From NCBI GenBank assembly GCA_965285935.1, contig OZ260666.1, positions 42,408,001-42,472,000 of the forward strand: a DNA stretch of 64,000 bases, read 5' to 3'. This stretch comes from Ophelia neglecta. Its lineage: Eukaryota. The notes beneath the pieces were generated by a model. It made no database searches. It was not told the DNA's origin and worked only from the letters and a program-made list of their open reading frames with translations. The position numbers and the translations under genes were made by a program. Positions 26,423 to 61,819 of this stretch are shown one piece after another. The number at the start of each line of letters is the position of its first letter. Within the stretch, counting starts at the first letter, position 1.

Positions 26423-26452
26423 ACCCATCACCATCCAGCGACAGGAAACGAA

Positions 26453-26530
26453 GCCCTGATGTCGTGACGTCACTCCTTGATACTTATGACAAAATTATTA
26501 AGTGGGACTGCGTCAGGATGATATGACGGT
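26453..26530 (+). promoter_or_regulatory. Conserved 3'UTR stem element (gene 3 copy)
   Basis: GCCCTGATGTCGTGAC ... GTCAGGATGATATGACGGT; homologous copies in genes 5, 6 and 7. Confidence 0.6.
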
Positions 26531-27203: not shown

Positions 27204-27227
27204 TGTAGCTTCCTACATGAAAATAAA
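27204..27227 (+). terminator. Gene 3 poly(A) signal with upstream hairpin
   Basis: TGTAG-CTTC-CTACA followed by AATAAA at 27222; the context is conserved in genes 5, 6 and 7. Confidence 0.7.
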
Positions 27228-28296: not shown

Positions 28297-28617
28297 TAGC
28301 GCTAGCCAATCAGAGCCGGGCTAAATGCTAAATTGCAAGGAGTAGGAAAACGGGCAGTATTATTATTATTATTATTAATAAATGTGAGAACCTATATACC
28401 TACACAGAGTTGAAAAAGCTTTTTTTGATACACATAACTGTGGTATATTCCTGATGAAGCACTTTAGTATTAAATGCCATTATAAACAGATAAAAGGCCT
28501 CGCTAAGAACGGGAAATTGCGAGTATCTTGCGAGCGTGTTTAAAAGCGATGGTAAAGGGAAAGGCCTCATTAAAAATTTGTTCGAGTTTTCAACGCTCCT
28601 GTTTTCTGTTTCATACA
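28297..28617 (+). repeat. ~300-bp segment with an inverted copy at 53778-54073
   Basis: For example ACCTACACAGAGTTGAAAA, ATATTCCTGATGAAGCAC and CGCTCCTGTTTTCTGTTTCATAC are reverse-complemented there. Confidence 0.85.
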
Positions 28618-30272
28618 TTTGAAAATTTATGTATTAAGCATGGTCGCTTCCACGATGGGAGAGTAACCGGAAAAATCACTGAGAGATTACCCTAATACCT
28701 TCAGCACACTAAATCAGGAAGCGATTAATATGTCTTGAAACTAGTCGAGCAGAGCCCGATTGTTTTTCCACACCCGCTACAAAATGCATACCAAAGAGAG
28801 AAATCTGCCTTCCGGACTCGAGTACTGCCTTTGGCTCTGCATGGCAACCTGGTCTGTAGGCCTATTTAAATATATACAAACTGTAAACTAGAGGAACATA
28901 TTATAATCTCTTTTTGGCATCTTACAGCGGCTGATCACTCCTCACTCTCTTTTCCCATATTGATATGGGAATTGCCGATTGAAGAATTTCGAAGAAGGCC
29001 TGCTCATTTTCAATGGGGCAAAATCTTCACCTGAGCTGCAAGAATGCCATAGGTGGAACTTCTCACAAAAAAGCTCATTGTAAAGCTGTCTGTGGTTGTG
29101 GGTGGCCATTGTAATAACCATTGCTTTCAAACCCAGATTGTTATTGATATACTTCGCAGAATTCGTTGCGTTGAAGCGGGATTTTAGGGCCTTTGAATGA
29201 TGCACAAACATAATCTAATGCACGAAATAGCCTATGGTGAGAAGGCTCTAGACTTTCCACGGATTGTTCAATTATAGCTGATACAATTTACGGTAGATTA
29301 ATGCGATCGATACCCCTTCTTTCCCCATATTAAAGGGAACACATTCGGTCGTAACCAATAGCACCCCACGCAAATATGAAACTTGTTTATTATTCCAATT
29401 CGATGCCACAGGTTAACTATATAGAGCATGCAATTGGTTAACTCAATTGTTTCATGGTTATGGACACAGTTTCACCACCCAAGAAGAAAACTAGAAAAGA
29501 AAAGGCTTTGGGCTGGTTGAGAGACAGATTGAATTGTTTGAAAATGTATAATAATATGTGTATATATCATGGATAGTGTTTTTCTGCCAGTCTAAGAAAT
29601 TAATTTTATATCAACTTGTAAAATGGTTTTCAGTATACAACTCTCCCGGCATGTTCGTATAAAACTTAGTACCAACTGCACTTTGTTTACCCAGCTGTAC
29701 GGCCTATAGCCTTCACCAGACACACACAAATACTTCAAAATTGCAATACTGGCGCTCCCTTTGGTTTTCCGTCCATTACCAGGATTTCTCACGGACAATG
29801 TCTATACGGGTCCACTACGAAAAACAGAAAACCCTCTACTAGGGACTGCATTGAATTTACCTTTCCATTGTAGTTAAGCAATTGATGTTTCATGCTTAAT
29901 TCTACCCCAGAAATACACACAAAAATAGTGGTTTGTCGTTGAGACAGTCTCGTCTGCCAAGCCCTAAAGAAGGTATACTACCCCTACCCCATCAGATCTC
30001 CAAGGTAGAGAGACTGTCCAATGCATGTCATTGAAAAACTTATTTCATTTTTGCCTCAGTACTTTTTCTCAGTCTGGGGTTATTATAGGTTCTAGTTTTC
30101 CATTTACTTGTGTCCAAACCTAAGACGAATAACTAATAAATATTCCTTGTCAAACTAACGTGTCATTTGTTATTTTAGGGTATGCTATCCACTTAATATT
30201 AAGGTGTGGAAGTTTTATAATCCGTTGCCAGTAAACATTGTGACGGTTACTAATCAAATGCTAGAGTACTCT

Positions 30273-31410: not shown

Positions 31411-31459
31411 ATGTCTACGAAGTTCATTCTGACGTGGGTTCTGCTGTTTACAAAAATCG
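31411..31459 (+). CDS. Gene 4 signal-peptide exon (MSTKFILTWVLLFTKI + G)
   Basis: Acceptor TGTTACAG (31402), ATG at 31411, donor G|GTGAGA at 31460; 16 codons + G as in the paralogs. Confidence 0.82.
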
Positions 31460-32674
31460 GTGAGATTTCCTCTATTGCAAATGAAACTTATTTACATAGA
31501 TAACACCTCAAGGAATTCGATTTAATTTTCTGAGTTGCAATTTTTCTCGTCAACGGAGGTGCAACTGAGAATATTTTGTTAATGAAATTAAGTAATACCA
31601 TATGTTTCCAATGTTAACCATAACTGTTCCAAATAAAGCATATTTATCACTAGGGCATAGGGTTATTACAATCAATTCTGACTCATAGTTCAACAAATGA
31701 TAAATGATTTTAAAATAAGCATGCTATGTACTAATGTGTACAAAAGACATATACAACCCAAACACAAATTTATAAGATGTACTCATATTAAGAAACAAAA
31801 CAATCAATAAACGTGAATAGAGAAAATCGAGAACTGGACAATTTTTCGAGAAAAACAAACATATCCGCATTAAATACAAAGAATTGGCTTTATCCCAGCC
31901 TGACTGTCTCTGAGATTTGTAAAAAAAATCATTGGTACCTAAACCCGATTATGTTTACTAGCTCTTCCTATAGTGTGACATAAAAAGTTATAAAATGTAA
32001 CATTAGGTAAGATGGAATTGGTTGTGTGATGTTCGATTAAACGTGTGTCCACTGGACGGTCCACCAACTCCCCTAGGCCTATTGTTTTTTGCGAAGCTGA
32101 AGCTTTAATCGGCCAAACTTCCAAGACGAACATTCGGACATGACCAGTGATGACTGGACCAGTGCAGATGCAGCAGCCGAAACAATAATTTGCTACCTGT
32201 TCCGGTGGCGCTAACGCTCTTCGCAGAACTCTGACTACAGTGCTGCCTCGTTGCGGAGCTCTAGCACAAATAGCCATAGGACATATGAATTGCTTTCATT
32301 CAAAATATGACATAAATAACTCTGGGCCTATTTCCTTTGCTTCAATAAGGTTGACACTAATGTAAAAGCTTTATTTATCAAATATGTAATATCACAAGAA
32401 AAAGGAAAAAAATGCTATGTCAGTTATATAGTAAAACGCTTTTCACTCCCGGCTAACGTATATAGAAATCCGAGAAAATATCTGATCAAACAAAGTTTGG
32501 AACTGAAACTAGCCAACCACTTTATACCTAGCTGGAATTAGTCTTGCAGTTTGTATTCCGAAACCAATTTGATCTTTCTCAATAATATTTATTGCGTTTT
32601 ATACATTAATGTTCTATCATTGGTATATAGACAATTGTTGGTCATATGTTTAAATGACATCCTGTTTCTTTCAG

Positions 32675-33102
32675 CGAAACATGACACCGTCTCTACTACC
32701 AACACTCCAGCCCCTAATGGAACTATCTCGCACACTACAGCACCTACCATAACTACCACGCAAATTACAGCATCTACTGAAACTACCAGGAACACTACAG
32801 CACCTACCATAACTACCACGCAAATTACAGCATCTACTGAAACTACCAGGAACACTACAGCACCTACCATAACTACCACGCAAATTACAGCATCTACTGA
32901 AACTACCAGGAACACTACAGCACCTACCATACACACCCCATGGCCACCAACTGTGCATTTAACCGGTGAGATAACGGGCGCTCCCTCTGCCACCGGCGTC
33001 TCAGAACCCGAACCCACTGTGCTAGAAAATGCTTCCACGCAACTGAAGGGAATTTTCGTGATGCTACTGATAACGGTACTATTCAGTCGGTTGCTTTTTT
33101 GA
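32675..33102 (+). CDS. Gene 4 terminal exon: Thr-rich tandem-repeat mucin ectodomain and GPI-like signal (158-aa precursor)
   Basis: Acceptor TTTCTTTCAG|CG is in frame with ORF 32551..33102. It has 20-aa repeats and ends ENASTQLKGIFVMLLITVLFSRLLF*. Confidence 0.87.
32732..32931 (+). repeat. Coding VNTR, 60-bp unit x ~3.3 (TTAPTITTTQITASTETTRN)
   Basis: Sequence lines 32761, 32821 and 32881 repeat exactly. Confidence 0.97.
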
Positions 33103-33925
33103 ACGTTAAGACCGGATGCCGAGACGTTACGTCTAGATGACAAAAAAATGATTGGAAAAAATTGGAACTAAAAACCCAGTTGCAGCAGATGAATGTCTAT
33201 GCAGGCTTGTCTTGGTTAGAGCCTAGCTATGGTGCCGAGCCGCGCCCGGTATTATTTTATAATCAAGTATACTCGCCTTCATGATGAGTTAATTACGTTT
33301 GCTGGGTAACTATTAAGTATAACTGTTAGTATGATGAAGGTAGAGACTTGGATCGAACGTAGCTATACTAAGTATTTACAAACACATTATGTTATTGATA
33401 TCTAGATTTTTTATCACGGAAACAAGTTCTGAACGGTGGCTTATCATTGCCTACACCAGAGGTGGCTGTATTTTGTGTTTTATGTGCTGAAAAGGAGAGT
33501 ATATGAAACAAAGCATGACGATATGCCTAAATCTTGAAGTTTAAAGAATCTTTATAGTTCTCGGCAAAGGATTTTGAATGAACATTGAATGTATAGTTTT
33601 GCTTTTTAATAAAGCGAAATTGCAGTTTATATATTTTTTTTGTGTGAAAAATAAATACTTAATAATTAATGTAGACTTTATGATCCTACTCAAGACAAGG
33701 ATTTGGCTACTTTGGGCAATCAGCCACTTCCTGTTTAACATGGTAGGCATGGTACAATTCAGAGATGAATAATGTCTGTGCCGTGATTGGTCGGGAGCCG
33801 GCAGTATTTTTCTAAACAGAATAAGCACATGGCACATGGCCACGATGGTCTGTTCAGCAGCACCAGCACAGTCTGCACTGAGGAGAGAGCTACAGACAAG
33901 GAGTTTTGGAAGACAAGAAACAATC

Positions 33926-34140: not shown

Positions 34141-34927
34141 TAGTAACGTTAATATTATTTTGTTTTCTTTCCTATTGTATTGGGGTTGTGGCGGGCTGGG
34201 ATAAAAAAAATCTCTCCGACGAGCCGCGGGCCGGGCCGGGCCGAGCACATTAGGTCAAGTCTCTCCTCGCAATGAAAGGCCATCACCGCGAATTATTATT
34301 TTGTAACACGTACACAATTTATATTTTTTTGAAATACTTATATAATTTTTAGGCATAAAAGTGATTAACACATTATCGGCAGATTTGCCTAATAAGGGGA
34401 ACTTTCTCTCCACTTCGCATGTCTGCGTAAACATGAATATCGTTTCTTTCCAAAAAGACTTCGCAAAGTTTAAAAAAGGTTTTTTTTTAGCCTGATTCCA
34501 ACAGGCAATGGGTGGCCAGAAGGTGTTCATGGTCGTTTATATGTTTTTTCTCTCGTCGAATCACAAGGCCAACAGTAATTATGAAACATTTTCCTTCCTT
34601 ACCTGAAAAGAGTTTATTTAGGAATGAAGGAAAGGGGTTTCTTCATAATTGACACTTTCTTATATACATATATACACCATATTTAAAGTTTGGTTCAGGT
34701 TATTTTCCCCAGTTTAGGAGATATTCAAGTGCGCGTGCACTAACATATTCCATTCAGAATTTTGCCAAATTCTAATATTTGGAAGCAGTTAACTTTATTT
34801 CTGTTCAATTACGCATCAAAGTACCTTTTGTCTGATATGAGTAATATATTATGACCAACATATTATTTTTGATGTGTGCCCTTGAAATAAATAAAAAAAA
34901 GTATTAAATAATCATTCTTGACGGATG

Positions 34928-34950
34928 TTTATTTCATGTAACGAACTACA
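34928..34950 (-). terminator. Gene 5 poly(A) signal with upstream hairpin
   Basis: Minus strand reads TGTAG-TTCG-TTACA TGA AATAAA. Confidence 0.7.
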
Positions 34951-35207
34951 GTCATCTCATCCCATTACAGCATAAAATACAGCTCAATATATAATGAAAC
35001 ATTTAATAAAGGCAGTTATAGCAACTAGATAAGCTGTTATGGTTATGAAAATGTTTACAAATAAAGGTCAGGATCATATTAGCAAATATGGTTTGGTTTG
35101 CAGAAAAGAATTATCAATATAATGTTGTAGTTTTGAAATTCTGCTTCATTTGTAATTATTAGAGTCAATATATTTAAGTATATCAACACAATCCAGAAGA
35201 TGACGAT

Positions 35208-35284
35208 ACCGTCATATCGCCGTGACACAAGGTCAAAACCTTTCAGGCTTTCAGCCATTCGGTAGTGACGTCACGACATCCGGT
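35208..35284 (-). promoter_or_regulatory. Conserved 3'UTR stem element (gene 5 copy)
   Basis: Minus strand reads ACCGGATGTCGTGAC ... GTCACGGCGATATGACGGT. Confidence 0.65.
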
Positions 35285-35312
35285 CTTCACATCTTTTAAC
35301 TATATGGGTCTG

Positions 35313-35608
35313 TTAGTGTGATCTTTGGACCAGTCGAGAGAGCGGAGACAGAACCAGGGACACCACCAGCACGTGCTGACAATGAATGGTATAGCAGCCA
35401 TTATCCAAACTAGGAGTGCTGGTTTCAGGTGTGTCCGCCGTCGCGGGAACCGTTGCGGTTCCTGTTTGGGTTCCCCCCGGGCTGGTCCCTGTGTTTGTAT
35501 TCTCAATAGGCACTGTGGTGGATCCCGTGTTTGTACCGTTGAATGTCGTAGGTTCCCTAGTCGAATCGTCTGGAGCCATGCTCGCCGTAGTTGATGCCTC
35601 AGTCAGCG
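35313..35608 (-). CDS. Gene 5 terminal exon: Thr-rich ectodomain and altered GPI-like signal (114-aa precursor)
   Basis: Acceptor GTTTTCAG|CG gives ALTEASTT..., in frame with ORF 35313..35666. It ends DNGCYTIHCQHVLVVSLVLSPLSRLVQRSH*. Confidence 0.85.
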
Positions 35609-36230
35609 CTGAAAACACAATGTTATTTGAATATATACATAATAGAAATATTATGTCTATGATCATGCTTTATGGCTTATAATCTTTACTTGACACGCGT
35701 GCCAAGGTTGAATTTTGTCGAATGGAATAGGGTCTTAGTTTTATTGATAAAGTTTTAGGCATAGATCATAGGCCTACGTGTATTTTAAAACGAAGAATAG
35801 AACCAAATACTTATTTATTACCAAATTTACATATTACACCTACATATAATAATATATATATATTAATCTGGACAAAATATTTAAATTTGAGAGTATGGGT
35901 TTAAGTGTTGGTAAGGGGAAGAATCTGACGAAGAAAAGGCAATATTTCTTAAGTAGTACCCCATTGGCAATAACAGAAAAAAAATGGGCACCTTATGAAT
36001 ATGATCAAAAAAGAAAAAAGACACTTCATACAAATAAAGCAGAATTGTCTAAAATAATAATAATAATTAACAATTTAGTTTTACATATCACCAACATAAA
36101 ACAGCAAACTAGTTTAAAATGTATTAAAACGTGGCATCATCATAAGAAAACAAATTGAATGATACAAAGACAATAATAAAATCAATTACAAAAGATGCAA
36201 TATGCCTTCGCACAAAGTGATAATAATAAC

Positions 36231-37040
36231 AACTGAACTGAACTTTTATTCAACCAAATTAATAATAACATGCAAAAAAACCTATATATTCAAACCATAA
36301 TGCTACACAAAGACAATTATTAACAAAATAAGTATTTACAATCGATAGATTAGTTTGGTTGGGAGACCCCCACTAAGTCCCAATGGACGCTACCATGAGG
36401 GCCACCCAGAAAAATTAAATAAATAGAGCTGATACTGTATTATGGAGTAGACTAGAAATCGGATATAATACAACTAATGTACAATAGCGAGTATACTAAT
36501 AAAAGAGGAACATTAATTTAATACAAGAATGCACTTAATACAATACGAATTTAAAATTTGACAATTTAATTTAATATATCATAAATTGTTAACAAGGAGA
36601 TATCAGATCAGGGGCAAATACAAGAAGTACAGTTAGTATAGCATGAAGGAAACACAGTGTGTAGTAATATTAAGACATTCTATGATTACCAGTTAATCAT
36701 GGAGGCTGCGCAGCCCTAAGGCATACATAACAGTTTTCAATTTCTCATGTAATAGAATAGGTATCAATAATAAAGATTTGAAATAAGCACAAAAACTAGG
36801 AAAAACAAGAACGTTAGCCATTTGCTTAATGTGATCTGGGATTTCATTCATCTCAGAGACGAGTTGATACCTAAGACATTTCATTGCAAAGTTATGCCTC
36901 ACAAAGGTTTGATAGAATCGAGATCTATTTCTGGTGTCATGTTCATGCAACTCGGAGGCTATGCGTAAATTAGAGTCACTGAAATATGTTGGAATGCTAT
37001 TGTGTATGTAAACAAGTAAATAACAAGTAACATTAATAGG
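36231..37040 (-). mobile_element. 3' fragment of a CR1/L2-group LINE inside gene 5 intron 2
   Basis: HEHDTRN...HNFAMKCLRY..V...N.IP..IK is typical of LINE ORF2 C-termini. The 3' end has AATAAAA and a (GTTCA)n tail at ~36231-36250. Confidence 0.65.
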
Positions 37041-37326
37041 ATAATAGCGAAAATAACGCAAGAGTCGAAATATAATACAAATTTAAAAATGTATTAATGT
37101 ATATATTATTTATTATATTTCCAACGCGTGCAGTGCCGGACACGACTAATGAGTAGAAAATACTTCTAAGGGACTTTTCTGGTGTTTGGCCATTTGACTT
37201 GCTTCATTTTATGACGTTCAACCTTGACCCACATGCACAGAACAAGACCGTGGTGTTGAATAAAAAATGTACAGTTTTCTCTTAATTCTATAGGGTTTTC
37301 ATCATTTAAAATACATTATAACTTAC

Positions 37327-37375
37327 CAATGCCTACAATCAGCATTACACTCGCTGCAACCAAGTTCTTGACCAT
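37327..37375 (-). CDS. Gene 5 signal-peptide exon (MVKNLVAASVMLIVGI + G)
   Basis: Acceptor TTGATTACAG ending at 37384, ATG at 37375, donor G|GTAAGT at 37326. Confidence 0.87.
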
Positions 37376-41229: not shown

Positions 41230-41900
41230 ACGTCGACCGCCATTACACAGGAGACAACTTCTTAAAAAGGGTGATTGAGTGTTGAAGCAATCAGAGAATA
41301 GGTTTGTACCTACAGTATCCGTTAACAAAAACTAAATGGATTGATCTGTAATCAATTTATAATTGTGATAAATTACAAATCTACGATAAAGGGACACCCC
41401 TTGCGACGATATGAGGATCAACCGACAATTTGAGTAGTTTATCCGACGAAGTTCCGTACACCGGATCTAAAATCGTTAATTTCGAAGGATCATTTATTTG
41501 CTAGTTTTATTTAATTGTGTATTTTTACAGTTTTATGTTCCATATACATCTGTGAAGCTCACTATAACATACGCAACAGTCAGTATGGAATTAAAGAAGA
41601 AATCAGGATAATTAGTGACCCTTGTAAGTAGTGGTAAAACTTTTTACTGAAGCAGTAACGATATAATAACACACATGACGATGAAAAGACCCCCTTGTTG
41701 ACGATATTAGGACACAAGGGTGATTAAATCTTCTTTCCAAACCTACCATTACAACACATCTCTATGTATAATATTTGAATTTTACTAAACAAGTCAATAA
41801 ATGAATGTTTTTCTCTGTGTATCACTTTGAATGGGGACATTTGGTTAATTTTGCTATTATATTTCTTTCGCAGGAGACCATACTAATATTTTAATATTGA
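41230..41900 (+). repeat. Diverged copy 2 of the 6120-6960 segment
   Basis: Shared collinear blocks, as listed for copy 1. Confidence 0.6.
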
Positions 41901-44639
41901 TTAATTCAATGTGGATTTAAGTCCCGATGCGCCGATATGTAGAAAAAAATATTGGCTGACATTCATAAATCGAGAAAGTGAACACGAAATATGTAACGTT
42001 ATAAATTTGGGGAACGATTAAGGGCAACAACAATTTTTTTAATAATCTAGCTTGTTTTATGTATACGCAAATTAATTATATAGACTCAAGAAGTTTCTCA
42101 CAAAGTCAGACTGGTGGCGATCGATAGAACACGAATTTATCATCTTAGAAGTTGAACAATAACCGTAACAGCCTCTATAGAAGACTGTATACCTCGATAT
42201 ATTATCGCCCTCAAAGGACAGTTTTACCGGAAAGAATTGCCTGACCTTCAGCGTACCAATGTCAACCTACCCTCATTGTGCACAGGCATCAGACAACACA
42301 AGTGATAAACAGTATTGATTGATAATGTATTAGGAGTGCTGGACAGTGTACTGTTAGCGCCATGCAGTAGGGTAGAACATGTCATTTATTTAAATTTGCC
42401 GCTTTTATTATGTTCTCGGTCATTCAATGTTTTAAAACATTCCTTAGGGAATTAGAGTGACATTAAATTGACCGTAATTATTAGAGTATATATTTAAATA
42501 ACCTATATCTAGAGAAAAAAATGTTGTTGTTGCTGCTTGGGGTAGAAGCTCCGTGACCCTATAGGAAGATGAAATGACGCCTAGCGGCGTGTGGAAGTAG
42601 TAGTGGTGTGGAAACACTTATTGAAACACCTGTTGTTAAGGTTAAAATTAAACAATCGTTAACCACGCATAATATCCTACCATACTGCTTACCCGGTTCA
42701 CTATATCAATATACACTTCCTGTGACACCCCTAAACAGCCCACTGATCCCTGTTTATTTGCATACTAAAGCATCATGCGACTGATTAACAGTGATTGTTT
42801 AATAGTTTCCCCGTTTAATCCTAATATAGGACAGAAAATTTCCTAAAATTCTGAAAGTCTCTCCATAAAACAGTTTACCTATAGTTAAGAAGATTTAAAA
42901 GCCTGGGTTTATTTGGTTTAGAAATGGCTGATGTCGTATTTGCCTTAGTCTCTGGTTCTCCCATTTTAGCCCTTTTTGTTGGTACTCGGCTTTTCCAAAA
43001 GAATTAAGATCAATTAAATGTCTTGTTGTCCCTAATGTGAGCAAAGATATTGTGCAATGAGACGCCAAAAATTAATATTTCAGGAAACAAACGAACTACT
43101 TGCCCCTTTCTCACTGAGACTTATACATCAAAAACTACTTGATCACTTGTGTGAGACTGTCTATAAAAACCCTGATTTCTCCACAAACCTTTATCAGGAT
43201 TACGCCAGGCCTAGTTGGTATCCAAGAATAACACATGTATCACCCAATTGACATGAAGAAAAACAGGCATGAAAAAAATTGATTTGAAAGCAAGCAGTGG
43301 CTTTAAACTCTAGCTGATTAACTATGACGGTGCGTAACCTCCAGGTTTTACCATATATGATCTGTATTAATAAAGCAGTAAAATCATACCGAGAATGAAA
43401 TCTTTTCTGTGGTCCTATCTATTTAAAGTCCGCCAGTAATGATGGCGAGTACCATATAAGGGCGGTTATAATATTTATTACTAGCAGTAACCCGTGGAAA
43501 ATTCCTCAGTGGAGGAAAGTATCCGACTAAGAAACAACCAATCTGTCTAGCAGCACCATCTGTCTCATAAAGGCAGTTTTCTTTGGTTTGGATATCAGAA
43601 ATGTGACTGCTCTGTGACAGCGTACTACTGCCCTAACTGCTTCACCGGCCAGCTATGTTCATGTAACATTCTCAATTTAGTATCTGCTTATGTATATATA
43701 TATACACTCCATTCCCCAGAGCCCACTCTGGTATCTGAGGTGAAACACATGATGCTTTGAAATTTCATAAAAAGAAGGGTCCATTTCCAAGCTGATCCAG
43801 ATTCTTTAAAGCCTTAAGAGTGTAAAGTGGTTTTGCAGCACAATACTATCACAACATAAATTACAGCTATATAGCCGCTAAAAATAATTGATGTTTAGTT
43901 GCTATAAATTCTCTAAGTTGACAAAATATGTTTTTTCGGATAAGACTCTAGAATCGCAAAAGAAACCTGTTCAGGGGTTTTTTTTCTCAAATGGGAGAGA
44001 AAATTCTTGCCAAAGACCTATAAAGTATGACGATAATTTTTATTTCTATAAGTTACGGTGCGACCACTTCAATATCACTCAATAATCACACAGACCATCT
44101 TTCTTAAGACGTTCAGTTAGTGACACTGTGCCTGATCCTTGATTGAACGCTGGGAATGAAACTCCCAATACACCTGACAATTGATTGATTTCGGATCATA
44201 CGGCCAATAAGCTGTCATTGTCAATTCCATACGTACACCAACTTATAGACCAATTAAATCACGAAAAAAAGAATTAAAAGAAAAAAAATATACTAAATAT
44301 TGGTTCCTAAATATGGGCCAATAACAGAACAATCCAGACAGGTCTGTTTTATTAAGTCTCCTTCCTCCACCCTGAATGATTGGATCAAAGAACAAAACAA
44401 CCCGGACCGCTGGTGCACTACCATAAGTCCTCTTTCATACTTTTGAATAGGGTGACAGGGGCCTAGAACAAAACAAACTTGATAGGTGTGCTCTGTTGGT
44501 TCCCACTCCAACATACAAATCATGTTCATGAACCGAGCAAACTGGACTTTTTATACCCCCCTCCCTTCTCCCTTTCATATTAACCTCCTCTCCTTGGCTG
44601 CCACATTTTGTGCTGTAAGCCTAACCCTCCCCCTGGCTA

Positions 44640-45180
44640 CCCCCCCCCCTCATTCCCCCTTAGATAACCCTCCTCCCATTGGCTGCTTCTTTTTGTGCTG
44701 TATGTCTACCCCCCCCCCTCCCCCACTGTAGCCTCAGTCTAGTCTTATACTGTCATTTACATGTTAGTCTCTTGTGACAACAAAACAGGTTTCTCTGCAT
44801 TTTTTCAGTACATCAGCATTGCATGAGAGTGCTATGTAAACCCCCTCCCCCCTCCTTCCCCCTTAGATAACCCTCCTCCCTTGCCTGCCCCTTTTTGTGC
44901 TGTATGCCTCACCCTCTCCCCCCCCCCCCCAGCTGCCCCCCTCCCCCCTCTGTATCCTCAGTCTAGTTTTATACTGTCATCTACATGTTAATCTCTTGTG
45001 ACATCAAAACAGGTTTCTCTGCATTTTATCAGTACATTAGCATTGCATGAGAGTGCTAGGTTACCCCCCCCCCCCCCCCTCCTTCCCACATTAGATAAGC
45101 CACCTACATAGATGTTAATCTATTGTGTCAACAAAACAGGCTCACTCTGAATCTTATCAGTAATCAGCATGGCATGTTGA
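44640..45180. repeat. Tandem duplication, ~200-220-bp unit x ~2.5
   Basis: TTAGATAACCCTCCTCCC...CTCAGTCTAGT...AAAACAGGTTTCTCTGCATTTT...GCATTGCATGAGAGTGCTA is repeated. Confidence 0.85.
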
Positions 45181-51586: not shown

Positions 51587-51644
51587 ATGATGGTTATGGC
51601 TACAAAATTCATTATTGGGAGCTTACTGCTGTTGGGCATCTTAG
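51587..51644 (+). CDS. Gene 6 signal-peptide exon (MMVMATKFIIGSLLLLGIL + G)
   Basis: Acceptor TTTATTGCAG (51581), ATG at 51587 (the ATG at 51596 aligns with the paralogs), donor G|GTGAGT at 51645. Confidence 0.88.
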
Positions 51645-52487
51645 GTGAGTTGTTTTTTCTTTTTTAAGTAAAATAGACATCTGTGGCTTATCTAAATTCT
51701 GAAAAAATATCTAATCACAATGTCAATTGCTCATGTTCTCTTTGACTGAAACGCAATTTAACCAATCAGGCTTCAGTTTAAACCTGCTAAAATTGCATTA
51801 CAATTAATTCCCAATCGCAGACCATGATCATGTGACCAGGACGGTAACACTCTCAACTTACTGATAATTATTATAACTTTTAATTTAAAATTATTTGTTT
51901 GCTCCATTTGATTTTTGTGTGAGCTTAGAACTGAAAAACTACAGTAACTGTTTTATTTTTTAATCTACAATATAATTCCAGAACCTTATTTTTCTTCTAA
52001 TTGGCATTTTTCAATTTTGTTAACATATCTAAAGATTGAATAATGTATTAGTAAATTAAAAACCTGCTAAAAGAAATTAAGTTTTAAGTTATGATTTGAA
52101 TCAAAATTAAATCTAAAAACTCTGCGAAAAATTAAATGTCATGTTAGACACTAAATGAAGTTGTCAAAGTTATAAGTCATGTTTTCCCCATCAAAAATTA
52201 GAATTGAATTGGAATTTACTTGTCTTAATATTAATGTCCTAAGGGAATGAATATCAAAATCCTCGGGCATGTAACCCTCAAAATAATGCACAAAATCAGA
52301 TCCTGCAATCATAACCCATCGTCCTCTTATCCCCTTCTCCCCACTGTTAATCCACGTCTCGTCACCGTGCTCCCCCCCCCATCACCACCACCACCACCAC
52401 TACCCCCCCCCCCCCACTCACAAAGGATAAATACCCAAAACACAGCTGATTTCTCCTCGTTTATTGTTACCATCTTGTTTCTATCAG

Positions 52488-52648
52488 CCATATCGGAGGG
52501 CTCTACCGCAACTACGACTGGCTCCGATGCAAATACCGGTACAAATGCCCCTGAGGCTACGACAGGGACGGGTGACAACGGCTCCATGCCATTGCAGGGA
52601 ATGCTTGTTATGTCCCTGGTAATGGCACTATTCGCTCGAATGCTCTGA
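52488..52648 (+). CDS. Gene 6 terminal exon: short Thr/Gly-rich peptide and GPI-like signal (69-72-aa precursor)
   Basis: Acceptor TTTCTATCAG|CC gives AISEGSTATTT...DNGSMPLQGMLVMSLVMALFARML*. Confidence 0.9.
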
Positions 52649-52679
52649 ACAATGTTCCATCTAGCGACAGGAAACGAAG

Positions 52680-52748
52680 ACCGGATGTCGTGACGTCACT
52701 TCGGATGCCCGGAAGGTTATTTCGATAGTGTCACGATGATATGACGGT
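52680..52748 (+). promoter_or_regulatory. Conserved 3'UTR stem element (gene 6 copy)
   Basis: ACCGGATGTCGTGAC ... GTCACGATGATATGACGGT. Confidence 0.65.
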
Positions 52749-52992
52749 ATCGCCATCTGCCGGATGTATTGTTTATTAGAATAGACTAAAAAGAAATTCA
52801 AGTGAAGTCTTTTATATAACTTTGTGCTACAGTGGCATTTTGCTGTCTATTTGTAAAACCCGTATTGCTCATCTGACTTTAACTGTGATATTAATAACGC
52901 TACCTTTACATTTTTAAATCATGATAACTAAAGTTGTATTCTTGTGATTTTATTACGTTGGCGCTGTCGTCTTGACGAACAGGGTAATATGA

Positions 52993-53017
52993 ATGTAGCT
53001 ATCTACATGATAATAAA
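52993..53017 (+). terminator. Gene 6 poly(A) signal with upstream hairpin
   Basis: ATGTAG-CTAT-CTACAT followed by AATAAA at 53012. Confidence 0.7.
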
Positions 53018-53777
53018 CACCCCTGTTCTGAATATTGATTATTTTTGTCTAATTGTTCATGCTTCCTCATTTTTTGTCAATTACCGCCCACCCTCCAATA
53101 CACGTGTCTAGTTATATTTAATTGCTTTTATCCCTTCAACACTTAGGCCTAACCTAATGCAATATTAACAGGCATGATAACATTATTATTATGTTCCTCT
53201 TATATTTCGGAAAGAAGACTAGCAATTTTGATTTCTGAGTAGGCTTCTTAGTGGAAAATTTACAGAATTGTAGAAACTACTAGAGACTACTTATTTTGAA
53301 AAAAAAAAAGATAGTGCAAAGATTAAACAGTCAAAGCTTTAAGCAAGCAAGCAAGCAAGAAAAGAACATAATATTACGTATCTACACCTAAATAAGTTCC
53401 AAGATGCAATTTTGTAATATTTCTCAGTTATGATAGACAAATTTTCCTGACGAAGCCCAATAGGATATGCCATTATAAAAGGCCCATAGCTAGATACTAA
53501 CGGACAGTTCAGAATAAAATCCGACCCCCCCCCCCAGGGGATTTTTCTGATTATTCTACATGCCTATTAAGTGTTTTAACTGAGAAAACAGACTGCCGGT
53601 TTAATGCGGACTCGAACCTAGACTGTTGAGTTAAAAATCATAAGCACGCAGCACTATATAAAATTCGATGCCCTGCGTATGTACTACATAGGCCTCGCTG
53701 GTTTGACAGGGGGTTAAACAGATCGGGTCCCTTTCCAACCGTGGAAACGACCACGCTTAGAACATAGACTAATTAAA

Positions 53778-54073
53778 GTATGAAACAGAAAACAGGAGCG
53801 TAGGAGAATCGGACAAATTTATGATTAGGGGCTTCCCTTTCCCATCGTTTTAAAACTCCCTCGTCAGATCATCGCAATTCCCGTTCTAAGCTAGGCATTT
53901 TATCTGTTAATAATGGCGTCGGGTACTAATGTGCTTCATCAGGAATATAACACAGTTATCAAAAAAAAATGCCTTTTCAACTCTGTGTAGGTATACATAA
54001 CGTTGTGTTCTAACATTTATTCATTATATTACTTCCCGTTTTCTTTCTCCTCGCTTTTTAGCGCCTAGCGCTA
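53778..54073 (-). repeat. Inverted copy of 28297-28617
   Basis: Reverse-complement similarity over ~300 bp. Confidence 0.85.
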
Positions 54074-57009
54074 TGTTTCTTGCATTCGCGCAGACGAGCA
54101 AATTTCCTGTAATATATCCATTGCTTGCAAAGTAATATGTTTAAACATAGTGTCATGTAGTACAATATGTTTATTGATGTATAAAGTAAGTTTTTCAAGG
54201 ATAAGTGCATAGCACTTTCTGACATTGCAAACACTAAAATAATGCTTACTCTTGATACATGGATTCGACTTAATCAGTAAACGGTGGGATGTCTGATTCC
54301 TTGTCGAATCGCGTAGCCACCGACTGTTTAATCCTGACAAGGTCAAGCACCTTATATAATCTGACCCTTCGTCAATGACTCCGGGGTACGCTCGTGTCGC
54401 GCTCACTAAGATGGGTTCAGGGTCGCATTCGTTGCGCTTGGAGACTGGCAGGTGATCTAGACTTCCGCGAGAAAACCGTCTCTGTTCCTGTGGCGAAATA
54501 CAGGAAGAGATGCATGTGTTAAGCTGCTGCCCTCTGACTAGCGATTTAAGACAGATAATATTTGGAAAGGTTCACATAAATATCGGCGATATCATATATA
54601 AGCAGGAATTAGCTCTCTACTTCTATGACGTCACAAATCGTTATTGAGTCACAAGATTTAGTGATGTGCTATGTGCTATTTGAGTACTTCATTTGTTATT
54701 TTGGATAGAAAGATTTAACCACTTACTCCCATACATCTATTTCATTTTGTGCTTTGTATTACTGTCAATTAATTTACTACTTCTACTACTAGTACACTAT
54801 GTTTATTGATTCATAAAGTACATTTGTAAGTTTTCCAAAGATAGCGCTTTCTGACATTACAAACACTAAAACAGCGCTATAACAGTTCTCTCTTTGCGAT
54901 CTAAATGTTATTAAGGGTCCGAATTAATCTTGCTTCGCATATTCTATCATCTCGTTTCTTTATAGTCGATAAATATCCGAGACAATTATTAGATACAACA
55001 TTACGAAACACATTAAATAACTCGATATGCATGCCATAAAATTTTGATGTGCGCAAATCTTTAAAATTGGTTCAGTGGAAATGGGAAGCCTTGTTAATCA
55101 TACGCATGAAATACAGCAGAATAAGACAAGGAAGGGCTGTATCTGAGAAAGATGCAGTCCATTAACGTGGCAGACGATGAAAACTCTGGTAGGCAGGGTA
55201 TTGAGGGGAAGGAAACTATTCGACGTAAATATATCAGCATATTTTTTAATCAATGTTCATGTTACAAAATAGTTACTAGGTTTTTCCCTCTGTTTCAATT
55301 TGGTTAATTATTTTCAATAGTGTTAAACAATTAAATCCTGCACACTAATATTACTTAGGATCGCTCTACATATACATGGTACCCACGGTCGGGCCTGTTT
55401 TGAATTTATACATAACGGCCGAATATCAACACGGGAGTAGTAGTGTGGCTCTAGTAAGCGTCGCGGTATACTACTTTATCGTTCCTTGGGATTGCTAGAA
55501 TCTTCCATTGTTGCTTGTACTTGCCTGGAATTGGGGTCTCACTTCTCACTTGTGTGCTGTCACCATATGTTTTTTTTTTCTTTCGGATGAATGTAGCGCC
55601 AAGATTAACTTTGGTAGTTTACACAAATGATTCAATTCATTTACGCTGAGATTGGCCACGCACTGGACGCGGTCTAGTACTGTTTACCGTCAATTTATCC
55701 AAAGAGAATATGCATATTACCTTATGCGTATTTAAAGATTTACTTATAAATTATACGTTATTAGGAAAGCACAATAAAAGAAACAAGAAACTGATTGATA
55801 TGATCAAATAATACAATGTTAACCCTTTTAGGAGTCACAAATAAATTTGCTCCCCTTTTAATATATAGATATAAGAACTCCCACTTGTCCATTTGTATAT
55901 ATGCGTATAAGGGCCGGGCTCGGCCGACCGCTCGTATATGGGTTGAGGCTCTTGGGTAATATCGCGGATGAAGAAATAAGTATTCCGTTTTACACACGTG
56001 CGTACTCGGTACGTGTGCACGGAGACATTTCCTATACGGATAACTATCATCGGGTAACTGTCGTGTGTAGCGCACATATTTCTACCAAAATACGCAATTT
56101 TCAATACATTTATGTCAAAACATTCAAGTTTGTTTTTTCCATGTCTCCATATTCCATCTCATTTCAACATCTCATTTAAAAAAGCACTATATCTGGCGGA
56201 TGTGCACACCAAATAACCCCGTTATGACGTCACGCTCCCTAAAATTTTAGGAAGTGATGTGTGGTATACGAGGGTCGCGTTCGAGAGATCGCGATTCTCG
56301 GGCGAGGACGTATAAGGGCCGTATAACATTTGGTGTGTAATTTTTTAACCATTGTCAGCGTTGATTCGAATAAACTTTTACAGCCAAAATACCGAAAACT
56401 TATTTAGTGAGTGTCTATTGAGCCCTTATTTTGAGCAATAGAAATAATGTTTCCAGCCCTATCTACATCAATCTTACGCTAAAACCGCAGATCCCCGCAT
56501 TGTCATTTAACCTTACTAATCACAAAGACCTGTGACCCTATAGGGCAAAGTAAGTTGGCCTACTTGTCTTCTAACGCATTCATCAAAGTGTACCGGCATT
56601 ATAATAAAAATAAAGGTAGAGAATAATATTAACTACCCTCAAAATTGACTAAAATAAGTGCTTGCAGTCCACTGCCGTTATCATTGTCTTTTATCTGCTT
56701 CATGATGAAAATTGGACAGATAAAGATTTAATTTTCCCAACCGTCAATGTGTGGAGCGGGGGGAGGGGGGGATGTAGATGAGGTAGGCTTTCTTAATATT
56801 ACTTATCATAAACTGTCGTCCATGTAGACATTTGTTCAAAATGGGAATACGTGTATATACGTACACATCAAAGACGCCGACACAGCCCATATGAAAATCG
56901 ACACGATGGACAACACGATTTTGCATCGAGCACGACACGCTTATTTCTAGGCCTTATCTTCCCACACACGACACACCTGCATAATCCCTAAAACATTGAC
57001 ATCAAGGTT

Positions 57010-57411
57010 TTTTATACCAGCCACATAAAGTCTGGAGATTTTCAGAAAAAAAGGTTTAAAATCATACGATGCTAGAAAACAGTGTGCACAAGCTACTGCT
57101 GACGCACATATTGTTTATGTGTAATTGGTTTGTTTAAAAAAGGTTGCCTCTAATTGGTTTGCTATGTATGACGTTTGACCTATTTAAACCCGAAGGCAAG
57201 TGAGGGGTTTTGCCAGAGCACTGTGTCCCTGGGTGCCGCTGCCTTCTGGTGGTGACGTCATCGCCTAAAGCAGGCCAAGCGTCATTTGCTTTCTGGGCCA
57301 ATCAGCGTTCACCATGGGAGCGCGTCACACATGCATAGATTACATACTTGATGCTTCGAGTAGTTTTTTTCCGCACAACTAGTCTCCAGACTTTATGCCG
57401 CTGGTATAAAA
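57010..57411. mobile_element. MITE with ~29-bp TIRs
   Basis: TTTTATACCAGCCACATAAAGTCTGGAGA ... TCTCCAGACTTTATGCCGCTGGTATAAAA. Confidence 0.8.
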
Positions 57412-58308
57412 GCTGACCCGCAACCCCAATATCGAACAACCCGAGAATTATATATTAGATTATATTGAAAATAAGCTGGTTGCCCTCCGGATCATACGGG
57501 TATAGAAACTGTCCAAACTTCTTCAGTATTTTGTGCTGCAAACCACCTTAACTTAAGAAAGGGTTAGCCTCACAACGTAATAATTCCTAGTAGGCCTGGG
57601 GTATCTGTAGGTAGACATATTATCGCTCTGGACAGCAGTCTGCACACTGGCACGTAAAACATGGTGGATGAGTGACCAAGAACAGCAGCGTGAGTATTAT
57701 AGTGTTTTCAATTTAAATTGATGAAGTGCATGTAAAATCACTTTTAATACTCTCCAAAGAACACTTGCATAGCTGCCTCCGGGTGAGTTACCCAGTGCAA
57801 CTGGAAGTATTGCAATCCAAACCCCCCACTTGTGGAAGTGTCTGAAGAGGGCATCGAAGTGTGCCTTTATTTACATACATGACGAACAGCGTAATATGAA
57901 GTTTCAAATATTTGGTTGACCCGCTCAATTATTGAACTTTCAAAGTTAACAAACAAACAGGTTGAAGTCGTTAAATATACCGTGCACTTGAGAGGTGGAA
58001 TATTGTGTGGTTCACTTTCCCTTTGATAAACTATGCCTATATTATATATCCTATAAGATAACCCCTTAATATGGTCAAACACTACAACACCACCCCACCC
58101 ACCCACCCCCACCCGCTTCTAAAGTGCGTGAACAGCTAATGCCCAAACCAGTAGGCCTTACGCACGTTACTGTTAGAATGGTATTAAGCGCATTCATGTA
58201 TTAAAATATAATGTCATCTACACTTAAGACACACAGGAAGCACGGAGGATCATTCAAATGCAACACTCAAAATAACCAAAGCGAAAATGAATGTTCTGAA
58301 CACGGATG

Positions 58309-58333
58309 TTTATTATCATGTAGCGAGCTACAT
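58309..58333 (-). terminator. Gene 7 poly(A) signal with upstream hairpin
   Basis: Minus strand reads ATGTAG-CTCG-CTACAT GAT AATAAA. Confidence 0.7.
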
Positions 58334-58568
58334 TCATTTTATCCTGTACAGGCGATCACAGTAACATACAGCTGTGGCATCAAATAAATTCAGAATGACC
58401 TTGACATGAAGAACTACCACAGATAAGCCAAATTATAACTTGTGATACAAATAAGAACAATCTGGCTTAGAATTCAAGTTTCCGTTTTGAAAATTAGTGT
58501 CAGTACGAACGTTTTTGCAGTTAAATTAGTTATTCCAATAGTATAGTTGTACATCGAGCAGACAACAT

Positions 58569-58631
58569 TGCCGTCATATCACCGTGGCACACCCCCATCA
58601 ACTAACGGAAATGAGGTCACGACATCCGGCA
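58569..58631 (-). promoter_or_regulatory. Conserved 3'UTR stem element (gene 7 copy)
   Basis: Minus strand reads TGCCGGATGTCGTGAC ... GCCACGGTGATATGACGGCA. Confidence 0.65.
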
Positions 58632-58672
58632 GTTGCTTTTGTCGCTCGAGAGTCTGGCGTATATATTGTGTA

Positions 58673-58809
58673 TTAGAGCATTCGAGCGAGTACAGCGAGC
58701 ACCAGTGACGTCACCAACGTGCACTCTAACGGCGTGGCGCCGGCGGTCGTAGTTGCTGGTGTAGTTGTAGATGTTCCAGGATCATTGGTGGTGGCCGCTT
58801 CTGATAGGG
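58673..58809 (-). CDS. Gene 7 terminal exon: minimal Thr-rich peptide and GPI-like signal (61-aa precursor; absent from the ORF track)
   Basis: Acceptor TTTCTTGCAG|CC gives ALSEAATTNDPGTSTTTPATTTAGATPLECTLVTSLVLAVLARML*. The C-terminus is homologous to gene 6. Confidence 0.88.
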
Positions 58810-59527
58810 CTGCAAGAAACCGGCATTTGTTTTATTTACATTTATGTAGAGCTATAGCATATATATATATAGGAATAACGACATTCCTCATAAAAAAACC
58901 ATTGATTACAAATTACAAAGAACGTTATTAAGATAAAAGTTTATTGCTAGAAGCCACTGACGTCAAAAATAGTGGTGTGTCCCATTCACACCACAAAACC
59001 GGTGGGGGGGGGGGGGTTATTTCCGGCCCTCGGGATCGGCCTTATTAATTCACCGTGTTCCGGGAATTGTAGTATTAATTTATCGTGCTTTTGAATTTGA
59101 CTTTTCTCCGTTCCTATAGGGATTAATGATTTCCATTTATTGATCTGCTTAGTTTCCCGTGAATCGGGAATCATCGTTCAAAATTATCGGGATCTGGGGA
59201 ACAACTTATTCGATATGATGAGAAATATCAATATTTTAAATGCCCGTGATTCGGGAATGGCCTCATTTTAAAACTGTGAACCGAAAACCGGGAACTCGAC
59301 CCCCAATATACCCCCCCCCCCCTCAATATATATACTGCTGCCTATTGGGGAGAAAAGGCGAGGTATTGTTGGTTTAACCCCCCCCCCCCCCCCCCCCCGT
59401 TTCTGATTCCACCCCACCCAAGCATATCTAGGTTTGGTAATAAAAATCGTAACTACCCCGCCCTCTCCCATGGCATCCCCCGGCCTTCGCTCCCAACAGG
59501 AGATAAACAAAGACCCTCTAAACTCAC

Positions 59528-59576
59528 CAACGATTCCCATGAGAAATACACACACGACAAACAATTTCGGAGACAT
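59528..59576 (-). CDS. Gene 7 signal-peptide exon (MSPKLFVVCVFLMGIV + G)
   Basis: Acceptor CATTACAG ending at 59585, ATG at 59576, donor G|GTGAGT at 59527. Confidence 0.88.
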
Positions 59577-60209: not shown

Positions 60210-61655
60210 GCAGTACGTGTTGTATTATGGATACGCGTTGTATTGGCAACGAATGATATTCTGGCCCCTTAACAATGAAATAGAGAAATTATCATTGTCA
60301 ACGTGATGAAAAGAAGTGTCACTAACTTTGCATTGTGCTCTTAACTTCAATCAAATATCGTCTGAATTAAATTAAATCGGAGGATATTATACAGTTTTTT
60401 ATTTTCAAATGAACCCCAGGTCAGAATACTAATGCAGTGGAATAAATATTGGATGTCTGTCTCCAAGGTTTCGGCGCCAAATATTTTCTAACTCGTAAAT
60501 AGTATCATTGAATTCTGAATGACATTACAAAAAGAGCTCCCTTTAGTCGGTAGAAAAGCAAATTCATAGTGCAGTGTTCAAATAAAAATAAAAATTCTTC
60601 AAAAACTTCAGATATCATCATTAGACTCAAATAGCCAAGAATGTCAACATTTAGTCATTGAAATTGACTAAGTCATTGCTTCACATGGGATCGTCTGCGT
60701 TCACAAGACTGGAAGTATACTGTGGTTCTAAAGACACGATCATATAAAACTTACGGATGAGCCAACACCAATTTGTCTACAAACAAGACTGTTGGTCTTT
60801 CGTCAATGCTATCTTTTGTCAAGAACACAATTCCATTTGCCAATGTCTGGGGCTCCGTGTCTAAATAAATACACTCTAGTTGTTAAACTGCGTAATTTAA
60901 TACACTTCTCCATTTTCTCATTCTCGGGCGATGACAAAAACTAAGGGCACTCGACTTGTTCATTCCTTTGCGCTTTTTCCTATTTGAAATGCTGAACTGT
61001 TTAAAAGACATGAGCCATCATCCATAAGATAAGTTATTACTCGGATTATATCTGATACAGCTCTGGCAATGATAGCGTGACATACATGTGTATCGACGCA
61101 AAAAACCATGAATTCGAGACAAGCTGTCCTGATATACTAGAATTTCTAGACCGGCGGACTGTAGTTGATTTATTATCATTTAATTATGTCCTCATAAAAT
61201 GGTATAGAGGTTTTTCTCTTTTATTCATGGTGTTTCAAGACCAAGGGACTCCCGGGTTTGGATAAGAGTTAGTTGAAGGAGTCCAGGGCAGGGGGTGTGG
61301 GTCTTCCTACCCGGAAAATCGCATTGACTTTACACCTGGCTATGATAGCAATACATAGCTTGCAAGTATATATTTTTTTCGATTTCTATTTTTTTCTCTC
61401 TAAAAAATTGTGGAATTGACTGGCCCGAAACTATCCCCGAACTAGAATAACACACATCCTTCAGATTGCCTACTCGCAGTTTATGTACCAACTAAGTCAC
61501 AAAATATTGCTAACTTATTCTAGCTCATAATGTCCTTATAATGGTCAAGACACCAAGAACACTTTCAACGTGTTCAATTTAAAAATAAAAGTAGTATATT
61601 GGCAAATATTGAATAAATGTGCGGTAGTTTTTTTTATTGCGATTCATCACTCCCT

Positions 61656-61819
61656 TACGCTGGGACAACGTATACGCTGGGACAACGTATACGCTGAGTC
61701 AACGAATACGCTGGGACTACGTATACGTTGGGACTACGTATACGCTGGGACTACGTTTACGCTGGGACTACGTTTACGCAGGGACTACGTATACGCTGGG
61801 ACTACGTATACGCTGGGAC
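61656..61819. repeat. Minisatellite, 17-bp unit (TACGCTGGGACTACGTA) x ~9.6
   Basis: Direct tandem repeats; these explain the overlapping repetitive ORFs here. Confidence 0.95.

Follow-up and report, generated by a model that had tools for sequence, protein, structure and literature searches.

The question raised by this locus is at which level, DNA or RNA, a conserved element lying just after the stop codon of several paralogous genes acts, and whether it is the kink-turn-like RNA stem that an initial annotation had described. The whole 64-kb stretch of DNA that was analyzed (termed the window) is, judged by a GC content of 32-44% per 2 kb, GT-AG introns and a LINE-type reverse transcriptase fragment, animal genomic DNA. 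The element just after the stop codon was termed E1, with arm A and arm B as its core, and a second conserved 3'UTR element was termed E2.

The host genes and the element after the stop codon

The window holds seven paralogs of a common plan, in which a putative non-coding exon 1 downstream of a TATA-like box is followed by a signal-peptide exon and then by a final exon carrying stalk, hydrophobic tail and 3'UTR. The stalks are S/T/P/G/A-rich, the models encode 61-184 aa and none of the seven contains an internal stop; the signal peptide/stalk/tail architecture suggests that the products are GPI-anchored. Gene 6 (51587-52648, plus strand, joined from 51587-51644 and 52488-52648) encodes a 72-aa product with a signal peptide, an S/T/P/G/A-rich stalk and a hydrophobic GPI-type tail, and ends in TGA. 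Gene 3 (25891-26422, plus strand; 25891-25939 and 26178-26422; 97 aa) ends in TAA, as do gene 5 (35313-37375, minus strand; 37375-37327 and 35608-35313; 114 aa) and gene 7 (58673-59576, minus strand; 59576-59528 and 58809-58673; 61 aa). Most of E1 and E2 is gone from gene 4 (31411-33102, plus strand; 31411-31459 and 32675-33102; 158 aa), which ends in TGA. At 35313-35330 (minus strand) the ancestral stop of gene 5 was apparently lost and four polar residues were added; the hydrophobicity of the gene 5 tail is 0.85 versus 1.7-2.0, and GPI anchoring of this product may differ.

No Pfam family scored above cut-off among the seven paralog pieces, and no protein homologs of the host genes were found at E ≤ 1. 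A host-gene profile search returned three weak matches over short stretches, and the Atlas look-alikes of the host genes all scored below 0.9, a CD24 cluster being a weak feature look-alike at 0.77. Proteins of the CD24/CD52 type are tiny GPI-anchored glycopeptides with a signal peptide, a short S/T-rich stalk and a hydrophobic tail. Their architecture is like that of the host genes, but the Pfam and homolog searches revealed no sequence homology.

When the whole window was searched with the arm A pattern at up to three mismatches, five matches were obtained, against a mean of 0.81 in shuffled sequence, and 0 of 100 shuffles reached five. The matches lie at 26454 (plus strand, two mismatches), 33111 (plus, two), 35270-35284 (minus, none), 52680 (plus, none) and 58616-58630 (minus, none). 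The arm B pattern matched four times (26512, 35208-35226, 52730 and 58570-58588; shuffled mean 0.01). By this search, the coordinates originally assigned to the arms in genes 3, 5, 6 and 7 were correct to within 1 nt, and the degenerate arm A reported in gene 4 (33109-33130) brackets the pattern match at 33111-33125, where the arm B pattern was unmatched. Genes 1 and 2 carry neither arm, and neither E1 nor E2 was detected there in pattern and model searches. In gene 6, arm A occupies 52680-52694 (plus strand), with its GA at 52684-52685 and an ETS-like site overlapping it at 52681-52688, and arm B occupies 52730-52748 (plus strand), where AUAU is followed by GA at 52743-52744. From the stop codon to the start of arm A there are 31, 28, 31 and 42 nt in genes 3, 5, 6 and 7, respectively, and the spacers between the arms measure 43, 43, 35 and 27 nt in the same order.

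Among the six paralog pairs formed by genes 3, 5, 6 and 7, mean pairwise identity reached 0.91 in arm A and 0.86 in arm B. The spacer gave 0.53 (shuffled 0.53), the UTR flanks 0.52-0.56 (shuffled 0.51-0.54), the ectodomain DNA 0.66 (shuffled 0.64) and the intron ends 0.44-0.49, while within the coding sequence the GPI-tail DNA reached 0.65 and the signal exon 0.62. The arms are therefore better conserved than the ectodomains, as had been proposed, and they also stand well above the flanking UTR, which is near the shuffled level. Because spacer, flanks, introns and ectodomain all lie close to background, the conservation of the arms is real and no leftover of recent duplication.

A mini-frame, ATG-TCG-TGA, within arm A (for example 52685-52693, plus strand) is invariant in all four copies, probably incidentally. 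In genes 3, 5 and 6 it is read in the same frame as the main stop codon, in gene 7 in a different one.

A second conserved element at the poly(A) signal

E2 was found by self-comparison in the same four genes and had been absent from the initial annotation. In each of these UTRs it overlaps the first AATAAA, and it is built of a lower helix, a 4-nt ANAU strand, GA, a 6-bp upper helix with a tetraloop, a second GA, and AAUAAA as the opposite strand of the loop. The gene 6 copy lies at 52972-53033 (plus strand), with AATAAA at 53012-53017 in the internal loop; those of gene 3 (27182-27243, plus; AATAAA 27222-27227), gene 5 (34912-34972, minus; AATAAA 34933-34928) and gene 7 (58293-58354, minus; AATAAA 58314-58309) are arranged alike, the lower extension being broken in gene 5. 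Mean pairwise identity of E2 among genes 3, 5, 6 and 7 is 0.80, and 56 of 64 cells pair, with three double-change pairs, a conserved 1-nt bulge and the tetraloops CUUC, UUCG, CUAU and CUCG.

The 5' strand of E2 matches the consensus of the bulged strand of E1 at 10, 10, 9 and 8 of 11 positions; against the window background, at least 8 of 11 are matched in 405 of 127978 cases and at least 10 in 12 of 127978. An A and then a U precede GA in all eight copies of the two elements. AUGA and its partner GA are fixed in four of four E2 copies while the letters of the loop vary, and this is the best argument for selection on the GA/GA core itself. The tie of E2 to AAUAAA points to the RNA level.

The folding statistics for E2 are mixed. 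Single copies gave z values of -4.16 in gene 6 and 0.35 in gene 5, and E2 of gene 5 was weak (0.05) in unrestricted folding of the whole UTR; the alignment folded better in the antisense (z -6.26) than in the sense orientation (z -2.91), and the co-occurrence signal was gone under within-helix permutation (8654/20000). A loose AUGA-stem-GA descriptor was unenriched (5 matches versus 2.7 in shuffled sequence), so the case for E2 is made by its conservation and position and not by the descriptor. Models built from the four copies were strong only for those four, which made up 4 of the 7 E1 matches listed and 4 of the 11 E2 matches listed, the others listed scoring at most 17.7 bits. A weak E2-like copy downstream of gene 3 (27890-27951, plus strand; 17.7 bits, rough E 0.083) keeps AUGA, the 16-nt spacing, GA and AATAAA on decayed stems about 700 nt past the gene 3 E2, and is possibly a distal or alternative poly(A) site.

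RNA pairing, competing registers and DNA sites

Single-sequence and alignment folding extended E1 about 22 nt past both arms into a hairpin of about 110 nt with two further outer stems. In gene 6 the hairpin spans 52658-52767 (plus strand) and comprises an outer stem, a middle stem, the NC stem, the GA/GA core, the C stem and a variable loop. The gene 3 copy (26432-26549, plus strand; arm A 26454-26468, arm B 26512-26530) has a partly broken NC stem and contains a CRE at 26465-26472; the gene 5 copy (35189-35306, minus strand; arm A 35284-35270, arm B 35226-35208) contains a CRE at 35266-35273; and in the gene 7 copy (58551-58652, minus strand; arm A 58630-58616, arm B 58588-58570) the CRE is lost.

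In the register first proposed, 48 of the 52 cells of the 13-pair core pair, two pairs vary through G.U only, and there is a single double change, the A-U to G-C change in gene 7 that had already been recognized as compensatory. The weaker pairing reported for gene 3 was borne out, since three of the four broken cells are found there; the fourth, in gene 7, had gone unmentioned. This covariation within the core lacks significance, one double change being reached in 129 of 500 shuffles. The 23-pair extended E1 pairs in 82 of 91 cells and has three double-change pairs (11/500 shuffles), all of the pair-keeping double changes being held by gene 7. Private changes on both sides of E1 pairs numbered 4 against 1.62 expected (376/20000 within-helix permutations, p ~0.02). 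When gene 7 was held out and the structure taken from the other three copies, 10 pairs carried novel letters and pairing persisted in 4 of these, in 3 via a double change; with gene 3 held out, 6 of 7 such pairs break and 1 is kept, and E1 of gene 3 looks relaxed.

Against column shuffles, the E1 alignment folded with a z of -3.96 in the sense (0/300) and -2.54 in the antisense orientation (4/300), and the single copies folded modestly (z -0.25, -1.71, -2.96 and -1.29 for genes 6, 3, 5 and 7). Under full shuffles the complementarity of the arms was significant for genes 5 and 6 only (24 and 41/5000), and with six arm B bases fixed the remaining complementarity was within chance (800-3269/5000 shuffles). 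Local folding from the stop codon gave arm A-arm B pairing probabilities of 0.98-1.00 in all four UTRs; in unrestricted folding of the whole UTR competitors often won (0.36 for the arms in gene 6), and the arms of gene 7 paired at 0.00 when folded with 60 nt of coding sequence. A hand count of G.U over A.C gave 11 of 15 (p 0.059) for a structure picked on the sense strand. The structure was chosen on the same four sequences, so these p-values are optimistic. RNA pairing of E1 is likely, with moderate support from four sequences at one locus. Of the post-transcriptional element that had been proposed, what stands is a family-specific conserved 3'UTR element most likely acting as RNA; its kink-turn geometry and its binding by L7Ae are putative.

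At the level of sequence, GA is present in register on both arms in all four E1 copies, and the order of C helix, bulge ending in U, GA opposite GA and NC helix has the polarity of a kink-turn. Past the G.A pairs, the NC helix has 4 bp with one double change in genes 5, 6 and 7, and pairs at two of four positions in gene 3. Standard kink-turns are bound by L7Ae and are marked by a kink of about 50 degrees and A-minor contacts. Those known to be bound by the L7Ae family include Kt-7, U4 snRNA and box C/D, and in mRNAs the yeast L30e pre-mRNA and the archaeal L7Ae 5' leader. E1 differs from these in being an animal 3'UTR site and in having as its partner another element, located at the poly(A) signal. 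The standard bulge has 3 nt (PMC8191799) or, in the wording of a review, 'most often three' (PMC5061560), unlike the four (AUAU) of E1. Forcing a 3-nt bulge produced an extra bulged G and was 1.7-2.3 kcal/mol less stable in all four copies. In the kink-turn register (K register) the C helix pairs in 34 of 36 cells, and its closing pair (-1b:-1n) is G.U in four of four copies, whereas that of standard kink-turns is mostly C:G; the closing-pair rules in the sections of PMC8191799 drawn on here cover Watson-Crick pairs only.

The initial annotation's kink-turn label fits the GA/GA and the polarity, and is made uncertain by the 4-nt bulge, the G.U closing pair and ensembles that are slipped in three of four copies. 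In the slipped register, which had been missed in that annotation, AUGUC of arm A pairs with GAUAU of arm B in 38 of 40 cells (9, 10, 10 and 9 of 10); all 28 cells of a 7-bp version pair, compared with 34 of 36 in the K register. The slip removes the tandem G.A and thereby explains both the invariant AUAU 'bulge' and the two variable bases (R and Y). What is left unpaired is a 1x2 G/GA loop and a 3-nt bulge containing both variable bases. In nearest-neighbour ensembles the adenine of the arm A GA was Watson-Crick paired with probabilities of 0.93, 0.13, 0.60 and 0.83 in genes 3, 5, 6 and 7, the slipped form dominating in genes 3, 6 and 7, and the predicted population of the K register, in a model without protein or Mg terms, was 0.03, 0.71, 0.14 and 0.01. 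To our knowledge, nearest-neighbour models contain no term for protein- or Mg-stabilized K-turns. One interpretation of these data, unlikely in our estimation, is that E1 is a functional RNA hairpin that forms no kink-turn and is bound by some other bulge- or dsRNA-binding protein, E2 being simply a structured poly(A) signal. However, among four registers compared on the isolated core, the K register came out lowest for genes 5 and 6. The corresponding strand of E2 varies (AGAU, AUAU, AAAU) and lacks an AUGUC partner, although AUGA and GA are fixed there in all four copies.

A Watson-Crick pair at 3b:3n prevents ion-induced folding of kink-turns, according to the portions used of PMC8191799 and PMC4382518. 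This position is C-G in genes 5, 6 and 7, so kinking is predicted only with protein; E1 would share with standard kink-turns of this class a protein-dependent folding in addition to the helix-bulge-GA/GA-helix order. Given the 4-nt bulge, the G.U closing pair and the competing slipped register, E1 was not filed as a standard K-turn, although it may work like one.

A reading at the DNA level has support of its own. In gene 6, a perfect CRE palindrome (52691-52698) straddles the end of arm A. The CRE, TGACGTCA, occurs nine times in the window against 0.63 expected, three of the nine being inside E1 (genes 3, 5 and 6), and CCGGAWGY occurs seven times against 2.83 expected, with five of these sites inside E1 regions. 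A site that we take, from its core motif, to be ETS-like lies in arm A of genes 4-7; the core is broken in gene 3, and ETS-like site and CRE are both intact in genes 5 and 6 only. On this reading, an ETS-like site, a full CRE and CRE half-sites would form a 3' enhancer co-duplicated with the genes, and inverted half-sites would give the appearance of a stem. E1 of gene 7 is without a CRE and two CREs lie nearby, at 58706 in the gene 7 coding sequence and at 58958 in an intron, which resembles site turnover; and in gene 4 the arm A region remains 20/23 identical versus 45/66 for the coding tail, with arm B gone.

We nevertheless consider a DNA enhancer unlikely. No transcription factor motif is intact in all copies (the CRE in 3 of 4, the ETS-like core broken in gene 3), and the ACCG/CGGT register, the double changes of gene 7, the outer stems and the placing of E2 around AATAAA are left unexplained. 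In the part of PMC3464117 used here, the ETS-CRE composite motif needs precise overlap; in arm A, too, a CRE is immediately preceded by an ETS-like site, but arm A lies in a 3'UTR and not in a promoter, its spacing is 3 nt longer than in the overlapping motif, and the combination is intact in only two of four copies. The CRE excess may also be a genome-wide trait, as the palindrome TAGGCCTA is equally enriched (11 versus 1.24 expected in the whole window). The CRE alone, which had been named as a possible explanation of the function, does not account for it: the gene 7 element has none, and a CRE would explain neither arm B nor the outer stems nor E2. There is real support for a constraint on arm A that acts on the DNA or independently of pairing, and dual use is possible. 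Should either the slipped register or the DNA reading be true, E1 would be an ordinary conserved UTR element, and GA/GA plus a bulge would be insufficient to call a K-turn.

Six other perfect CREs were seen in the window, at 40253, 54626, 56225, 57253, 58706 and 58958. A promoter-like cluster of CRE, CCAAT and TATAAAA at 57245-57415 (plus strand) is aimed at the 3' end of gene 7 from the opposite strand, and a similar cluster of CRE, AP-1-like and TATA-like sites lies at 54590-54655; both possibly mark an unannotated or antisense transcript. Many poly-G/poly-C runs accompany TAGGCCTA in the window, a combination that may be an echinoderm-like trait, and a literature search on this enriched palindrome found no papers.

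Candidate readers, precedents and decay

Our preferred explanation, held tentatively, is that E1 and E2 are paired cis-elements of the sense-strand mRNA, selected in four paralogs, that share a G.A core and are bound by protein. Both are conserved and complementary, and in both the strand RYR-ANAU-GA stands opposite GA on the partner strand; as to register, ligand and output, we infer the following. One RNA-binding protein would most likely read both elements through tandem sheared G.A next to an AU-ending loop, and the best candidate would be an L7Ae-fold protein (15.5K/SNU13, eL30 or SBP2L), with hnRNP A2 as a precedent outside the L7Ae family. Free E1 would be a helix with a sliding bulge of 3-4 nt that adopts the kinked GA/GA register mainly upon protein binding. 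E2 holds AAUAAA on the opposite strand of a SECIS-like loop, and its occupancy may determine whether the poly(A) signal is used or how the tail is controlled afterwards, while E1, beside the stop codon, may affect stability, translation or localization; together they would co-regulate GPI-type mucin-like surface peptides post-transcriptionally. That gene 4 keeps arm A without arm B counts against a paired RNA element.

A more specific proposal is that these are two SECIS-core/kink-turn-like modules in non-selenoprotein mRNAs, at which an L7Ae-family protein (SBP2L, eL30 or 15.5K) gates 3'-end formation or poly(A)-tail control, coupled to translation or localization, with the sliding bulge of E1 as a protein-triggered switch. 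We regard this as distinctly doubtful. As described in PMC1874613, SBP2 favours sites in which A and U precede the GA, the third pair is not Watson-Crick, the fourth joins a purine to a pyrimidine and the internal loop is large, and Snu13p/15.5K prefers a closed bulge. E1 follows the fourth-pair rule and mostly departs from the third-pair rule, and E2 has the loop and a U-A fourth pair; with these determinants lacking, neither is an ideal SBP2 site, and E1 would be the more 15.5K-like and E2 the more SBP2/eL30-like of the two. If the proposal were true, L7Ae-family proteins would gain an endogenous mRNA-regulatory role beyond selenocysteine recoding, and the locus would provide a compact natural test set in which four paralogs are intact, one is decayed by half, one has largely lost the elements and two lack them.

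Natural K-turn-like sites in animal mRNAs beyond SECIS are poorly documented, the PKM-zeta GA motif being the one clear 3'UTR case among the literature results listed; none of those results had a K-turn or SECIS-core motif built around a poly(A) signal, and neither E1 or E2 nor any AAUAAA enclosed by a GA/GA motif was described in the top-listed open-access results. Structured poly(A) signals and polyadenylation gated by proteins are known from the U1A PIE and the HIV-1 polyA hairpin. In E2, as in these and in the structured poly(A) signal literature sampled from PMC5961354, RNA structure lies at or around AAUAAA; unlike the U1A PIE and the HIV-1 hairpin, a GA/GA core flanks the signal and no U1A-type loop sequence was seen. 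The 'GA motif' dendritic targeting elements bound by hnRNP A2, in BC1 RNA and the PKM-zeta 3'UTR, are described as switching between extended and kinked forms in the sections consulted of PMC3153643. Compared by that description, they are 3'UTR stem-loops with tandem G.A, an adjacent asymmetric loop and flanking G-C, and E1 of genes 5, 6 and 7 has the tandem G.A core, the adjacent internal loop and the flanking G-C. The GA-motif elements belong to rodent neuronal RNAs, whereas here two elements per mRNA are kept across paralogs, one of them at the poly(A) signal. On this comparison, the PKM-zeta 3'UTR GA motif is the closest functional precedent.

The decayed E1 of gene 4 (33108-33130, plus strand) comprises the arm A region only, 20 of 23 positions being identical to gene 6; a 20-nt deletion took the 5' outer arm of E1, and arm B and E2 were undetected in pattern and model searches. 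A candidate for a compensated arm B at 33208-33215 was not accepted: it pairs with arm A at 8 of 8 positions (46/5000 shuffles, post hoc), the alignments are ambiguous and the predicted fold leaves it unused. The paralogs stand in tandem, gene 3 is partly decayed and gene 4 has largely lost the elements, as would be seen if E1 and E2 were merely left over, neutrally, from duplication, from short-tract gene conversion or from an ancient inverted-repeat transposon. Such an origin is very improbable, as each gene has four short islands at 0.80-0.91 while spacer, flanks and introns lie at shuffled background, the spacer varies from 27 to 43 nt between kept arms, the 64 kb hold no copy outside these UTRs, and the elements are sense-oriented in plus- and minus-strand genes alike.

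Known RNA classes were also considered. An Rfam scan, as the initial annotation had suggested, gave eight matches in the window, none of them overlapping E1 or E2, and two UTRs scanned locally yielded 5 and 2 matches, all far below the gathering score and none from a SECIS family. ARAGORN found no tRNA genes in the window, and the two-arm pattern had no match in prokaryotic genome contigs. A pre-miRNA was rejected because of the missing Rfam match and of bulges that would leave arms of unequal length, and a snoRNA because of the exonic position and the missing Rfam match.

Eukaryotic SECIS elements, the targets of SBP2, SBP2L and eL30, resemble E1 and E2 in lying in the 3'UTR and in having an AUGA plus GA core with A and U before GA; E2 further has the SECIS topology of helix I, internal loop, core and helix II, with an internal loop of 4 x 6-7 between two helices, and the outer stem of E1 starts about 9 nt past the stop in genes 3 and 6, as might serve readthrough. 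The SECIS core order, 5' AUGA and 3' GA, is found in four of four E2 copies but is circularly permuted in E1, where AUGA is on the 3' arm. SECIS helix 2 has 14-15 bp plus an apical AAA/G (or CC), according to the part used of PMC2761289, versus a 6-bp upper helix with a tetraloop and without apical AA in E2, whose internal loop holds AAUAAA. That E1 and E2 serve UGA recoding or stop readthrough is largely refuted and almost certainly wrong, since the host mRNAs have no Sec codon (the seven models lack internal stops, and genes 3, 5, 6 and 7 end in TAA, TAA, TGA and TAA), Rfam gave no SECIS match, the SBP2 helix-II determinants are present only in part, and the readthrough frame is not common to gene 7 or gene 4.

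Several repeats were noted elsewhere in the window. The LINE-type reverse transcriptase fragment (10959-12020, minus strand; Pfam RVT_1) has relatives at up to 50% identity, and a second likely non-LTR remnant lies at 21757-22194 (minus strand). Tandem or local repeats occupy 876-1233, 9547-9876, 32695-32931, 44554-45176 and 61655-61819; the second and third of these code for the repetitive stalks of genes 1 and 4. Dispersed repeat pairs of ~300-350 nt at 69-76% identity (28327-28671 with 53723-54062, inverted; 6492-6784 with 41405-41712) are likely old transposon fragments.
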